NCBI RefSeq assembly: GCF_030013595.1
Contig: NZ_CP122768.1
DNA from: Escherichia coli
GTDB lineage: Bacteria; Pseudomonadota; Gammaproteobacteria; Enterobacterales; Enterobacteriaceae
DNA: 64,000 bases
Strand: one strand, 5' to 3'
Both the position numbers and the translations under genes were made by a program. Position 1 is the first letter of the stretch, and every line of letters starts with the position of its first letter. Positions 8,427 to 23,010 of the stretch are shown piece by piece. Below the pieces are notes generated by a model. That model worked only from the letters and a program-made list of their open reading frames with translations, searched no databases and was not told the DNA's origin.

Positions 8427-8539
8427 GTGGGTGTTGTGTTTAGGGCCGGGGAGAGTCGGGGTATGACTACGAAAGCCCCTAACTTAAACACGATATTACG
8501 CCAGAAGTCACCATTTCCAAAACACAACGCCGTTGTACC

Positions 8540-8773
8540 GTGGGATATCTGCCCAACAGCAGCGACACGCCGGTGATCAAAATCAGCGCCAAATGGCTGA
8601 GAGAAGCGGGATTTGAGATCGGCACGGGCGTTACCGTGAAGATCCCGGAAGGTTGCCTGATCCTGCTTGCGGATAACAACGGAGTACAGGAACTGAGGAA
8701 GGAACTTTATAAGGTTAAACAGGCTGTTAAGGGGATGCGTGACGGGATGTTTAGTGTGCTGAACGAAAGTTAA
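8540..8773 (+). CDS. SymE-like protein (type I toxin family, AbrB/SpoVT-like fold), N-terminally short
   Basis: The core ISAKWLREAGFEIGTGVTVKIPEGCLILLA is similar to the conserved core of E. coli SymE as I recall it (ITLKGQWLEAAGF...VKVMEGCIVLTA). Confidence 0.6.
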   Translation: MGYLPNSSDTPVIKISAKWLREAGFEIGTGVTVKIPEGCLILLADNNGVQELRKELYKVKQAVKGMRDGMFSVLNES

Positions 8774-8783
8774 ATAATAAAAA

Positions 8784-8819
8784 AGCCGGGAAGATTTAAT
8801 TTTCCTCCCGGCTTTTATT
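8784..8819. terminator. Rho-independent terminator after the SymE-like gene
   Basis: Hairpin GCCGGGA...TCCCGGC followed by TTTTATTTT. Confidence 0.6.
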
Positions 8820-9068
8820 TTAGCTTAAAAGTATTTTTTCGATATATTCACTAACCTTTGAATTAACTCCTGATATATATTCATTATCTTTACCAGAGTA
8901 AAATTTTAAAGAACCTTCCAAATTATCATGAAGAACAAGAAGATCATAAGCAAGTAATTTTGGGATAAGCGAAGCACTTTGATAATCAGTCATTACTTTA
9001 TCAAGTGACATATATAGCCTATCAATTATGTTTGTATCTAAATCATCCGCTAATCTAATCATTTCCAC
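8820..9068 (-). CDS. Hypothetical 82-aa protein (orphan; AT-rich locus)
   Basis: ORF in conspicuously AT-rich DNA directly abutting the IS66 end. I recognise no family. The start is uncertain. Confidence 0.35.
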   Translation of the reverse strand: MEMIRLADDLDTNIIDRLYMSLDKVMTDYQSASLIPKLLAYDLLVLHDNLEGSLKFYSGKDNEYISGVNSKVSEYIEKILLS

Positions 9069-9107
9069 TACATCAATGTAAGCGACTCGTCAGAACCGTA
9101 TTGATAT

Positions 9108-10679
9108 TTACTGAGAGCTCAGATCAACTTTCCAGGGCAACAGATCGCGTACCCGGTTTGCCGGCCAGTCCTGGATATGTTCAATGACGTAACGCAGCCA
9201 CTTTTCTGGCTCCACATTGTTCAGACGGCATGTGCCGATCAGCGAGTACAACACCGCCGCATGTTCACCACCGCTGTCGGAACCCGCGAACATCCAGTTT
9301 TTCCGGCCTACGGCCACTCCCCGTAAGGCGTTCTCTGCGATGTTGTTGTCGATTTCCACCCAGCCATTACTGCAGTACACGTTCAGTGCATCCCACTGTT
9401 TCAGCAGGTATGCGAACGCTTTTGCCGTATCTGAGTGACGCGACAGTGTTTTCATCTGTTGCTGTATCCAGTCATACAGTGACTGCATCAGTGGCGCGGC
9501 TCTGGCTTTTCTTGCCGCCAGACGCTGTTCTGCTGAACAGCCCCGGACCTCTGCCTCGATGGCATACAGTTCACCGATACGCTGCAGGGCTTCCGTGGTG
9601 ATGTAGGTGGGCGCTCTTGCATGCACATCGTGGATTTTTCTCCGGGCATGAGCCATACACGCGGCTTCCGTTATTCTGCCGGATTCGTATAACGCCCGGT
9701 AACCACCGTAAGCATCGGCCTGAAGCACACCGCTGTAACCGGCCAGGTGATTTTGTGGATGGATACCTTTCCGGTCCGGACTGTACGCGAACCAGACCGC
9801 CGGGGGCATCTGTGAACCGGCGTTACGGTCATCACGGACGTAGACCCACAGCCGGGCTGTCCGGGTTTTACCGCTGCCCGGCTCCTGGACCGGGACGGGG
9901 ATATCATCAGCATGGACTTTACCGGGCATCAGCACATACTGGCGCAGGACGTCATACAGCGGCTCCAGCAGTTCAGCAACAGCACCTGTCCAGCGCCCCA
10001 GTGTGGCACGGCTCAGCTCCACTCCCTGACGACGGTATATTTCTGACTGGCGGTATAACGGCAGATGGTCTGCATATTTCCCGGTGACAACATGGGCCAG
10101 AAGCCCCGCTCCGGCATAACTGCGTGCAATGGGTTTTGAAGGTACTGGTGCCTGTACGATATGGTCGCACCGGCAACAGGCCTGTTTCGGACGTTGTGTT
10201 TCGATAACCTTAAAGGCGCTGCTGATAAGCTCCAGTTGCTCTGACACATCACATCCCAGAGAACTGAGTTCACCACCACAGGCAGGACAGCATTCCTCTT
10301 CCGGCCGGATAACCCGGGTTTCACGGGGAAGTGAGGCCGGTAACGGTTTACGGGCTGAAGACTGGCGCAGGGCGGATGGCAGTACCGGGTCATATTGCTC
10401 ACCCAGCGTTTCCGCCATTTCTTCCTGAAGTGCGCTGATTCGCTCCTGTGCTTCCTGTATCTGCCGTTCGGTTTTTGCACGAAGTTTTTCTGAGCTTTTA
10501 CCGAACTGCATACGTTGCAGTTTCGCAACCAGCGCCTTCAGCCGGTTGATTTCGGAAGCATAAGCCGCCACCCGCTGTGAGAGCAGGCGGTTGTATTCAG
10601 CCATCTGGCGGATGGTGTCCTGTTGCGTCTGCAACAGTGCCCGCAGGCGGGCGTTCTCATGAGCAAGTGAGGTGTCCAT
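9108..10679 (-). CDS. tnpC: IS66-family transposase TnpC (orf3)
   Basis: 523-aa protein with an N-terminal coiled coil, a Cys-rich zinc-finger region (CPACGG...CCRCD) and a DDE-type core. Confidence 0.85.
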
Positions 10680-10698
10680 ATCCTCACTTTACAACGGG

Positions 10699-20830: not shown

Positions 20831-21822
20831 GCGACGATTTCACTCAGGCGCAGGAAACCCCCTGGCGTTACGGTTTTCTGAACCTGATGCGCCGCGTGGA
20901 TGTGCAGTTGTGTACTGTTCCGGCAGGCAACACCTGGCAACCACGGATGGAAAAATTTCGCCTCGGACAAACTCCCGCGCTGACCTTTGCGCCACGGGAA
21001 ATCGCCAGTGTGAGCTGGCAGGAAGAGCGGCTGCACATCAGTTTGTACAGTCTCGGGCTGTGGGAGCCGAACGGTCCACTGCCGCTGCACTACACCGAAC
21101 TGGCGCGCAACCGGACTGAAAGCCGAAGAGACCCGACGCTAACCCGTTTTTCTGATCTTTTTCATCACCGCTGGCTGACGCAGTTTTACCAGGCATGGCG
21201 CAGCGCCCAGTCCGCTGGGGGCGGTCTGGATAAACCACAACATGACCGTTTTGCCTTTTATATCGCCAGCCTCAGCGGGCAGGATTTGCGGGAGAGCGCC
21301 GACAGCCCGTTGCCGGATCACGCTCGCCTGGCGGCATCGGCCCATCTGGTGCGTGAGTCCCGCAATCCGGACGGTCTGGCCACCACGCTGGCGCACTATT
21401 TCGGTGTACCTTTCCGGATACAGGAGTATGTCCTGCACTGGATAGCCGTGGCGGACGATGAGATCACCCGGCTGGGGATGCCAGCCCCCTCTTCCGTTAT
21501 TGGCAACGGTGCACTCATCGGCCAGGCCGTGCCGGACATGCAGTATAAGTTCCGGCTGGTTATCGGCCCGCTGACGCTGGAGGATTACCGACGTTTTCTG
21601 CCTGGCGGCAATAACCTGCCAGTCCTGACAGAACTGGTCCGCGCCTTTAGCGGTTTTGAATACTGCTGGGAAATTGAGCTACAGCTAAAGCCCCACGCCG
21701 CCCCTCCGGCTGTTACCGGTGGTTCGTACCAACTGGGCTGGACCGCATGGGCGGGTAAAGCCATGCACGAAAACCCGGTGACGGGCATGATTTTCGAACC
21801 AGAACACTACCTGGCGCACTGA
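20827..21822 (+). CDS. tssG: T6SS baseplate protein TssG
   Basis: 331-aa protein whose start overlaps the tssF stop (ATGA), in the conserved tssE-F-G order. Confidence 0.8.
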   Translation: MSDDFTQAQETPWRYGFLNLMRRVDVQLCTVPAGNTWQPRMEKFRLGQTPALTFAPREIASVSWQEERLHISLYSLGLWEPNGPLPLHYTELARNRTESRRDPTLTRFSDLFHHRWLTQFYQAWRSAQSAGGGLDKPQHDRFAFYIASLSGQDLRESADSPLPDHARLAASAHLVRESRNPDGLATTLAHYFGVPFRIQEYVLHWIAVADDEITRLGMPAPSSVIGNGALIGQAVPDMQYKFRLVIGPLTLEDYRRFLPGGNNLPVLTELVRAFSGFEYCWEIELQLKPHAAPPAVTGGSYQLGWTAWAGKAMHENPVTGMIFEPEHYLAH

Positions 21823-21832
21823 GGATAATTTA

Positions 21833-22879
21833 ATGGATACATCCCTGTCTGACCCAATTTCGGCAGAATGCCCCTGCGGCCCGGATCTGGAGTACGATCC
21901 GGAATACCTGCTACTGTTCACGCGCGCCGCACCGCGTGAAGAAGCGCAATACGGCGATTTTGTCAGTACGCCGGAAACCATTAACTGGGCGGAGCTTGAG
22001 CGGGATGCCTGCCGACTGCTGACGCGCAGCAAAGATATCCGCATTCTGGTTGTCCTGCTGCGCTGCCGTATCCAGCAGGCCGGTGCCAGGGGACTGGCGG
22101 AGGCGCTCGCGCTGCTGGAAACGTTGTGCGCCACGTACCCGAACGCCATCCATCCTCAACTGCTCGCGACTGAAGATATCACCGCCGAAGAGGCGGCAGT
22201 GGCACGTAGTAACGCCCTGGCGGCGTTGCTGGACCATGAAGGCGTAATAGCGGATATTCGTGGCATTACACTGTCAAACAATGCTGCCATACGCCTTCAG
22301 GTACGGGATGTGGAGCGTTCGCTGTCTGCATCACGCCCGGCGGATGCGCTGGCACCAGAATCGGTACGCCAGCAACTGGCCGACCTGGAGGCGCGCGGCA
22401 CACTGCCGCTGGATGCCTTTCGCCAGGCCGCAGAGACCACTGAGCGGCTGCAACGCCATGCGCGTGAAACGCTGAATGACCAGGCACCGAACCTATCCCG
22501 TCTGACACAATTGCTGGCCCTGTTGCCGGGAGCGATACGGACCACCACGCCGGAGATCCTGCCACAACCAGTGGCTGAACAGCCGGAGAGCACCACCATC
22601 GTTCATACTGAACAGATATCATCAGAGCAGATTGCGCTACCGGTGCATATCGCGGAGGAAATATCACCGATGTCCGGCGCAGACCCCCGGCAGATCCGCG
22701 ACCGGAACGACGCGCTGGAACGCCTGCGTGTCATCCGTCGCTGGTTTGAGCACAGCGAACCGAGCAGCCCGACCATTCCTTTGCTGCGCCAGGCAGAACG
22801 CCTGGTCGGAAAACGCTTCTCGGAGGTAATAAATGAAATTCCAGTAGAACTGCTGGAAAAATGGGATGCGCTGGAGTAA
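21833..22879 (+). CDS. tssA: ImpA N-domain protein (TssA family, short form)
   Basis: N-terminus MDTSLSDPISAECPCGPDLEYDPEY resembles the ImpA_N domain. At 348 aa it is shorter than canonical TssA. Confidence 0.65.
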   Translation: MDTSLSDPISAECPCGPDLEYDPEYLLLFTRAAPREEAQYGDFVSTPETINWAELERDACRLLTRSKDIRILVVLLRCRIQQAGARGLAEALALLETLCATYPNAIHPQLLATEDITAEEAAVARSNALAALLDHEGVIADIRGITLSNNAAIRLQVRDVERSLSASRPADALAPESVRQQLADLEARGTLPLDAFRQAAETTERLQRHARETLNDQAPNLSRLTQLLALLPGAIRTTTPEILPQPVAEQPESTTIVHTEQISSEQIALPVHIAEEISPMSGADPRQIRDRNDALERLRVIRRWFEHSEPSSPTIPLLRQAERLVGKRFSEVINEIPVELLEKWDALE

Positions 22880-22885
22880 CAGAAG

Positions 22886-22918
22886 TGGCCAGAATTTATA
22901 TTATCTGGCCATTTTTTA
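22886..22918 (+). terminator. Rho-independent terminator after the tssA-like gene
   Basis: Hairpin TGGCCAGA...TCTGGCCA followed by TTTTTT. Confidence 0.6.
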
Positions 22919-22961
22919 AATCATATTCGTTTTACTTGCGGAGTGAAAAATTCTCGCTTCA

Positions 22962-23002
22962 CCAAAACGACGAAAGCCCGAATCAGTAATGATTCGGGCT
23001 TT
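22962..23002 (-). terminator. Terminator downstream of aspV
   Basis: Hairpin AAAGCCCGAATCA...TGATTCGGGCTTT directly 3' of the tRNA on the - strand. Confidence 0.6.
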
Positions 23003-23010
23003 CTGAATAT

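Follow-up and report, generated by a model that had tools for sequence, protein, structure and literature searches.

In Salmonella, a type VI secretion system (T6SS), that of pathogenicity island 6 (SPI-6), adjoins the tRNA gene aspV (PMC2907695, PMC12288458) and is classed as i3 (PMC12994826). In Escherichia coli, a T6SS of enterohaemorrhagic O157:H7 (EHEC) and extraintestinal pathogenic (ExPEC) strains lies between aspV and yafV (PMC5363993, PMC2941450). Loss of T6SS has been published for E. coli, through deletions in sequence type (ST) 410 and a tssM::ISEc12 insertion in ST131 (PMC10711316), and for Shiga toxin-producing strains (STEC), through a tssM amber mutation, a tagO-tssH deletion and an hcp-impA-tssM′ remnant (PMC10562709). 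Here we analyse a 64,000-bp stretch of an E. coli chromosome (NZ_CP122768.1; hereafter the window) in which the segment 8479-23010, between yafV and aspV, is very probably the non-functional remnant of a SPI-6-like (i3) T6SS island of ~44 kb, broken by insertion of the insertion sequence (IS) ISCro1 and a subsequent deletion.

The window covers the chromosomal region fadE-ivy-yafV ... aspV-dnaQ-rnhA. In blastn alignments with strains lacking the insert, core homology stops at 8478, 52 bp past yafV, and resumes at 23011, the start of aspV, in agreement with the limits assigned to the island in a preliminary description of this DNA. Genes were identified by hmmscan against NCBIfam and from the RefSeq annotation of orthologues (Table 1). 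As had been described, tssA, tssG, tssF, tssE and tagJ lie on one strand, with clpV, tssB and the 5′ part of tssC on the other. A gene reported as encoding an FHA protein is likewise present, but its match to Pfam FHA is weak (E = 0.0024) and it is properly assigned to TagK.

The full T6SS core set is not encoded at this locus: TssA, TssB, TssE, TssG and ClpV alone are intact, TssC, whose truncation had been noticed before, retains 154 of its 504 codons, and TssF is split. Searches of the 64-kb window by tblastn with queries from intact relatives found no Hcp, VgrG, TssJ, TssK, TssL, TssM, TagF, Tae4, Tai4, Tlde1 or Rhs, which bears out the reported absence of the first six, and unrelated T6SS proteins from strain O157:H7 Sakai used as queries found nothing further in the same 64 kb. 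Because the established architecture of the T6SS needs the missing parts for its sheath, baseplate and envelope-spanning complex, a locus without the Hcp tube, the VgrG spike, TssJLM, TssK and two-thirds of TssC should be unable to build a firing apparatus. The genes tssA, tssG, tssE, tagJ, tagK, clpV and tssB, together with an effector-like gene pair, are intact passengers.

The deletion was mapped against two genomes that carry the island at full length. VCSW7 is colinear with window positions 11774-41995 at 99.0% identity. HCP5S3_I2 (NZ_CM149870.1, positions 4221500-4273631) has the same flanks, yafV and aspV-dnaQ; in the core flank it matches the last 22.5 kb of the window at 100.0% identity, and its T6SS genes are 99.8-99.98% identical. 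Read from aspV, both islands begin with tssA-tssG-tssF-tssE-tagJ-tagK, followed in the other orientation by clpV, genes for proteins of 187 and 96 amino acids (aa), tssB and tssC. They continue with Tae4-Tai4-hcp-tssJ-tssK-tssL-Tlde1 pair-tssM-tagF-glucosaminidase/immunity pair-vgrG, and end with a gene for a DcrB-like adaptor, Rhs, an ankyrin protein, orphan Rhs fragments with small genes, a 97-aa orphan gene and a SymE-like gene next to yafV.

Relative to this arrangement the window lacks exactly 26,726 bp, corresponding to positions 4223217-4249942 of the HCP5S3_I2 record (left breakpoint 4223216/7, right breakpoint 4249942/3). The missing DNA spans from inside the 97-aa orphan gene to the boundary between tssC codons 154 and 155. 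On the right, the TssC fragment of the window is 100% identical to residues 1-154 of VCSW7 TssC. On the left, residues 13-97 of the HCP5S3_I2 97-aa protein are matched with 100% identity at window positions 9077-8823 (tblastn); the small open reading frame (ORF) at 8820-9068 (minus strand) is the 97-aa gene minus its first 12 codons, and hence not intact. Gone with the segment are two-thirds of tssC (its 3′ part), Tae4 with Tai4, hcp, tssJ, tssK, tssL, the Tlde1 pair, tssM, tagF, the glucosaminidase effector pair, vgrG with its DcrB-like adaptor, and the array of Rhs toxins. Since this also removed the genes that confer immunity to Tae4, Tlde1 and the glucosaminidase, the event does not look selected for keeping immunity.

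HCP5S3_I2 retains the full 44-kb island despite separate damage: a copy of ISCro1, itself interrupted by an IS3 element, lies in tagK, another IS3 lies beside tssH, and hcp has an internal stop. In the two genomes the T6SS has been inactivated independently and in parallel, in one lineage.

Alignment with other aspV-linked T6SS loci, as proposed in the preliminary description, thus maps the deletion, but only the SPI-6-like type is valid for the comparison. The aspV cluster of O157:H7 Sakai (positions 240000-289000) was considered as a deletion reference and rejected as a different T6SS type.

The IS that occupies the site of the missing DNA carries the mark of what happened. In the window the flanks of ISCro1 differ, with ACATCAAT on the left and TATTCAGC on the right, and there is no 8-bp duplication. 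In PK-F-10122, ISCro1 interrupts tssC at exactly this nucleotide, oriented as in the window, and has an 8-bp target-site duplication (TSD), TATTCAGC, on both sides; the rest of tssC, Tae4/Tai4, hcp and tssJKLM follow beyond the IS, as expected of a simple insertion. The element is bounded there by 8000/8001 and 10699/10700 (numbering of the extracted locus) and in the window by 9077/9078 and 11773/11774. The single-sided TATTCAGC, combined with the missing neighbouring DNA, indicates an insertion followed by a deletion, and the lack of a TSD is therefore evidence of post-insertion deletion, not an argument against the identity of the IS. The left junction also occurs on its own, at another chromosomal locus and at the same nucleotide (~position 125 of the extracted locus), in GCA_012931135.1, where the copy of the left-junction module is 98% identical and adjoins ybgA-phr. 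Both junctions of the window are thereby recognizable as natural ISCro1 insertion junctions. These data sustain the earlier reading of the locus as a remnant of T6SS decay beside aspV, cut at an IS66 element, and give it a mapped deletion and a half-duplication.

Both junctions also recur together in other assemblies. Over 20,465 bp, GCA_021649405.1 aligns with window positions 1773-22236 without a mismatch and with a single gap, and GCA_900448395.1 carries both junctions on a 3.4-Mb contig, with an extra IS3 inside ISCro1 that marks it as an independent assembly of a different isolate. In each, yafV and the SymE-family gene flank the element on one side and tssB-clpV on the other.

A frameshift in tssF had been counted together with the truncation of tssC as part of the inactivation. 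It is present in the sequence, but it proves to be a private homopolymer difference: aligned with four intact alleles, tssF measures 1,883 bp in the window compared to 1,884 bp elsewhere, owing to one T missing from a run of eight (T8, ~19767-19773). The gene is in frame at 12 of 12 comparator loci, including seven that share the tssC::ISCro1 junction and the near-identical GCA_021649405.1, whose single gap relative to the window is taken to be the T8 site. A very recent slippage mutation and a homopolymer sequencing error are about equally good accounts of this difference. There is, in our judgement, an even chance that the frameshift is not biological at all and that tssF is intact, as the in-frame comparators would have it; slippage in a T8 run is also plausible as a first neutral mutation once the system was dead. 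Inactivity should be argued from the deletion and not from tssF, and more generally reads are needed before a single frameshift in a homopolymer is scored as decay.

How the 26.7 kb came to be lost can be considered from the two junctions. In the history that we favour, ISCro1 would have inserted into tssC after codon 154, duplicating TATTCAGC. The DNA between the far end of the IS and a site in the orphan gene near yafV would then have been lost, most likely by homologous recombination with a second, directly oriented ISCro1 within the orphan gene. The product of such recombination would be a single IS with mismatched flanks. The orphan-gene (hyp97) copy is predicted to have had a right junction consisting of the IS end followed by ACATCAATAATAGTTT. 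We lean to recombination because the left junction exists on its own elsewhere (in GCA_012931135.1), and because adjacent deletions mark replicative elements, a class to which IS66 elements are not known to belong.

The single tssC::ISCro1 copy may instead have made the deletion itself, by transposing within its own molecule (intramolecular transposition, one-ended or replicative) to a site in the orphan gene. This route is possible, though we consider it somewhat unlikely. It needs only one IS copy and would give the observed product, one IS with the old duplication on its right flank and a new left flank, and the ACATCAAT site is evidently usable as an ISCro1 target. Set against this, adjacent deletions are typical of replicative elements; the mechanism of the IS66 family is poorly characterized and may be copy-out-paste-in, which does not leave such deletions. 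Direct evidence favours neither model.

Several points weigh against the proposed history. No genome was found with both ISCro1 copies in the island, and the final sequence would be the same for recombination between two copies and for intramolecular transposition. PK-F-10122 carries a diverged allele (95% identity, with a mismatch 14 nt from the junction), and is for that reason a model of the precursor state and not the actual ancestor. As regards loss of function, a second T6SS or stray hcp/vgrG islands may lie beyond the 64 kb in view, although these should not be able to stand in for an i3 sheath, baseplate and membrane complex.

The two insertion sites have further occurrences. The tssC site TATTCAGC has been hit by ISCro1 in two alleles that are only ~95% identical, and the site in the 97-aa gene, ACATCAAT, at two chromosomal loci, on the yafV side and on the ybgA-phr side. 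Such recurrent junctions suggest either a marked target-site preference of ISCro1 or the spread of IS-bearing alleles by recombination.

The effector-like pair noticed in the preliminary description is intact in the remnant, where clpV and tssB flank it within the T6SS cluster. The larger product of the pair, of 187 aa, has no significant sequence match in Pfam, NCBIfam or the Protein Data Bank (PDB); the similarity to Pfam Peptidase_M15_4 is insignificant (E = 0.12). A search returned 359 homologues of it at E ≤ 0.001, distributed across Enterobacterales, Burkholderiales and Rhizobiales. In an alignment of 25 diverse homologues, all have H120 and H181 and at least 90% have D127, and the resulting H120-x6-D127 ... 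H181 fits the metal-ligand pattern of LAS/M15 peptidases, H-x(3-6)-D ... H. An AlphaFold2 model (pLDDT 95.5) was compared with PDB structures by Foldseek; the top 18 matches were all LAS peptidases (Ply500, LdcB, VanY, VanX, VanXYc, ChiX and related endolysins), the best being Ply500 (E = 4e-4, TM-scores 0.44/0.53) and the next 17 having E = 0.01-0.24. The protein thus looks like a divergent LAS/M15 peptidoglycan peptidase. Like the LAS (MEROPS M15) enzymes Ply500, LdcB, VanY, VanX and ChiX it has the H-x6-D ... H ligand pattern, and enzymes of this kind alone head the structural matches of its model, but the structural similarity is modest (TM 0.4-0.5) and there is no significant sequence match to them.

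Gene neighbourhoods were sampled in seven distant loci, from Herbaspirillum, Ralstonia, Rubrivivax, Intestinirhabdus, Pectobacterium, Scleromatobacter and Rhizobium. A gene of ~96-105 aa lies directly downstream of the 187-aa homologue in five of the seven; the sixth has a 173-aa ORF at this position and the seventh has none. Three of these partners, aligned with the 96-aa protein of the window, are homologous to it and have in common two invariant cysteines and an N-terminus that is hydrophobic. In the three Burkholderiales genomes (Herbaspirillum, Ralstonia and Rubrivivax) the 187-aa homologue is immediately preceded by a PAAR gene, which overlaps its start. In Intestinirhabdus a VgrG island is found ~6 kb away, and in Pectobacterium, Scleromatobacter and Rhizobium the 187-aa homologue is an orphan. 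The PAAR linkage and the downstream partner fit a cargo effector that is delivered by PAAR and countered by an immunity protein in the periplasm.

We lean slightly towards the view that the pair is the founding E. coli member of a widespread, uncharacterized family of PAAR-delivered effectors of divergent LAS/M15 fold, in which every effector is paired with a small immunity protein, disulfide-bonded and periplasmic. If so, the strain would stay immune to the 187-aa toxin, but kin with intact islands could still attack it with Tae4, Tlde1 and the glucosaminidase. M15-like domains have already been predicted in other classes of T6SS effector, WHIX and Tpe (PMC12135965, PMC6833914), so the pair would be a new family of a known kind, distinguished by a small stand-alone protein without WHIX, LysM or transmembrane fusions. 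A literature search for cargo effectors of M15 or VanY type, in SPI-6 or in E. coli, gave nothing specific, only TagX and these predicted domains.

TagX of Acinetobacter is a LAS-type T6SS protein that resembles Ply500 (PMC5061870), and it raises the improbable alternative that the 187-aa protein is a housekeeping peptidoglycan hydrolase with which the T6SS crosses the wall of its own producer. The position of the gene inside the core cluster, between clpV and tssB, and the best structural match, to the very enzyme that TagX resembles, would suit such a role. TagX has two transmembrane segments, however, and the 187-aa protein has none, in its sequence or in its AlphaFold2 model. The small partner with its signal peptide, the existence of the two genes as a free module outside T6SS clusters and the PAAR gene directly upstream in three of seven loci also speak for an effector pair, which makes a cheap, testable candidate for a new family targeting peptidoglycan.

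The distribution of the junctions was examined in public assemblies. For the truncated TssC of 154 aa there are 70 indexed blocks, 37 of them on contigs of 10-20 kb. Most contigs break at the IS, and the record covers the tssC::ISCro1 junction better than it covers the deletion, for which a 63-aa truncated-gene product is on record in only three contigs. Among 5,426 complete RefSeq E. coli genomes, the left junction is found in none and the right junction only in PK-F-10122. From these counts the deletion state appears confined to a small lineage. Although ISCro1 is multicopy in E. coli, found in thousands of places, and short-read assemblies break at it, as in those 37 of 70 blocks, it is hardly credible that the IS junction is a mis-join through the repeated IS and the cluster really intact in the genome, given the same two junctions in GCA_021649405.1 and on the 3.4-Mb contig of a different isolate, GCA_900448395.1. 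The assembly artefact that the preliminary description had kept in view is accordingly not what the independent assemblies show.

Two other assemblies share the truncated tssC and depart from the window on the far side of the IS. GCA_021649245.1 (locus 10466-20465) has IS3, IS21 and plasmid-like par/stb genes there, and GCA_021649585.1 (locus 13162-14109) has unrelated small ORFs. The differences may reflect additional rearrangement by IS elements or, alternatively, contigs joined through repeats during assembly.

Table 1. Features at and between the borders of the yafV-aspV accessory segment, in window coordinates.
Feature	Position	Strand	Basis or remark
yafV (2-oxoglutaramate amidase)	7647-8426	+	NCBIfam NF007757, 546 bits; core-genome left border
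SymE-family gene, 77 aa	8540-8773	+	RefSeq 'SymE family type I addiction module toxin'
Remnant of 97-aa orphan gene (85/97 codons, 5′ end gone)	8820-9077	-	tblastn; left deletion breakpoint
ISCro1 (IS66 family), 2,696 bp, apparently intact	9078-11773	-	NCBIfam; ISCro1 annotated in HCP5S3_I2
tssC 5′ fragment, 154/504 codons	11774-12237 (codons 11776-12237)	-	TIGR03355, profile positions 3-132/473
tssB (sheath small subunit), intact	12262-12807	-	TIGR03358, 190 bits, above cut-off
96-aa candidate periplasmic immunity protein	12869-13159	-	N-terminal signal-like hydrophobic segment, two invariant cysteines
187-aa candidate cargo effector, divergent LAS/M15-like	13162-13725	-	Motif, AlphaFold2 model, Foldseek
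clpV/tssH, intact, 877 aa	13738-16371	-	TIGR03345, 1219 bits
clpV-tagK divergent intergenic region	16372-16703	.	332 bp, 28% GC
tagK, intact	16704-17624	+	NF033418, 547 bits
tagJ (ImpE family), intact	17611-18441	+	RefSeq name of orthologues; Pfam ImpE on identical gene
tssE, intact	18438-18932	+	TIGR03357, 68 bits
tssF, two ORFs (18948-19844 and 19820-20830)	18948-20830	+	Profile positions 1-260 and 279-598 of 600
tssG, intact	20827-21822	+	TIGR03347, 327 bits
tssA/ImpA-family gene, intact	21833-22879	+	TIGR03363, 146 bits, just under cut-off 160.85; RefSeq 'TssA' or 'ImpA family'
tRNA-Asp (aspV), right island border	23011-23087	-	ARAGORN; Rfam tRNA, 67.7 bits

ISCro1 in the window is 100% identical to the RefSeq-annotated ISCro1 of HCP5S3_I2. 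Its three ORFs are all full length: tnpA (11046-11720; NCBIfam NF038385, 296 bits), tnpB (10699-11046; NF033819, 129 bits) and the transposase gene (9108-10679; NF033517, 478 bits). The terminal inverted repeats are imperfect, 18 of the 30 end nucleotides matching (GTAAGCGACTCG... and GTAACCGGCTCA...).

Among the remaining genes, TagJ gave no NCBIfam match by hmmscan. The divergent region between clpV and tagK presumably holds the promoters of both operons. Its GC content, against 52-58% in the flanking genes, marks it as a likely regulatory region, for which control by H-NS or Fur is plausible by analogy with SPI-6 and EHEC. ARAGORN also called a tRNA-His of 94 nt inside tssF (20613-20706, plus strand); Rfam has no tRNA there and the call is very likely a false positive.

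At the yafV end, the 599-bp interval between yafV and the IS is AT-rich (39% GC) and holds the SymE-family gene and the small opposite-strand ORF of the truncated orphan gene. The SymE-family product scores 37 bits against the NCBIfam SymE model, short of the cut-off of 132, over positions 32-86 of a profile of 113; the identical gene of GCA_021649405.1 carries a Pfam SymE_toxin annotation. Antisense to this gene, Rfam isrA matches at 8560-8643 (minus strand) with 31.8 bits, below the gathering score of 51, and Rfam Ssr1 at 8510-9073 (minus strand) with 249 bits, below the gathering score of 820. These sub-threshold matches could point to a type I module at the end of the island with an antisense RNA as its antitoxin.

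At the other end, the 3′ end of aspV (minus strand) at 23011 adjoins the island, and the tssA stop codon is 131 bp away. No integrase ORF was found within 8479-23010. When the yafV border was searched for a copy of the aspV 3′ end in direct orientation, only a 10-nt match at chance level came up, and an att-like repeat was rejected on this ground. SPI-20, which lies beside aspV in Salmonella, is likewise without obvious flanking direct repeats (PMC2907695).

Within E. coli, the SPI-6-like island is uncommon and frequently incomplete. Any part of the tssB-tssA half is present in 170 of the 5,426 complete genomes (~3%); at least 80% of this half is found in 116 genomes, and at least 80% of the tssM-hcp block in 112. 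The other 54 of the 170 carriers, about a third, keep less than 80% of the tssB-tssA half, one example being a bare tssA 3′ end beside a vgrG fragment. So many fragmentary carriers indicate that decay of the SPI-6-like island is common.

Assignment of the island to the SPI-6-like type, subtype i3, is inferred from its cargo (Tae4, Tlde1), its TagJ and TagK content and the aspV site. VCSW7 Tae4 matches PDB entries 4J30, 4HFF and 4JUR at E = 2e-93, which we take to be structures of S. Typhimurium Tae4. The E. coli island and Salmonella SPI-6 share the same tRNA neighbourhood, and the Tae4/Tai4, Tlde1 and glucosaminidase/Tgi2 cargo typical of SPI-6 is also present in the intact E. coli relatives. 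They differ in that the cluster of the window is truncated, and the likeness between them is drawn from cargo and site. Two Salmonella papers that name SPI-6 effectors, PMC12994826 being one, do not include the 187/96-aa pair.

The aspV T6SS of EHEC and ExPEC strains ('T6SS-2' in the scheme of Journet and Cascales) occupies the same slot, also according to the Sakai annotation, but as represented by Sakai it has another gene order and its proteins are only 27-42% identical to those of the window (TssB 32%, ClpV 41-42%, TssG 27-28%). It has no match to TagK, TagJ, TssE, TssA or the 187/96-aa pair of the window. On this comparison the aspV-yafV slot of E. coli holds two unrelated T6SS types, of which the SPI-6-like one is the rarer, and screens for presence or absence need the right reference. 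The presence of two types at one E. coli slot mirrors Salmonella, where SPI-6 and SPI-20 both lie at aspV.

Among the published E. coli losses of T6SS, the window finds its closest parallels in mode. In these cases too a large deletion or an IS insertion has left remnants that were diagnosed from junctions and TSDs, but they concern common E. coli types and not the SPI-6-like one. As far as we have found, the combination of ISCro1, tssC and the breakpoints of the window is undescribed, and the event is new in its details only. IS- and deletion-driven loss of T6SS is already documented in E. coli, and to this the present locus adds one precisely mapped case.

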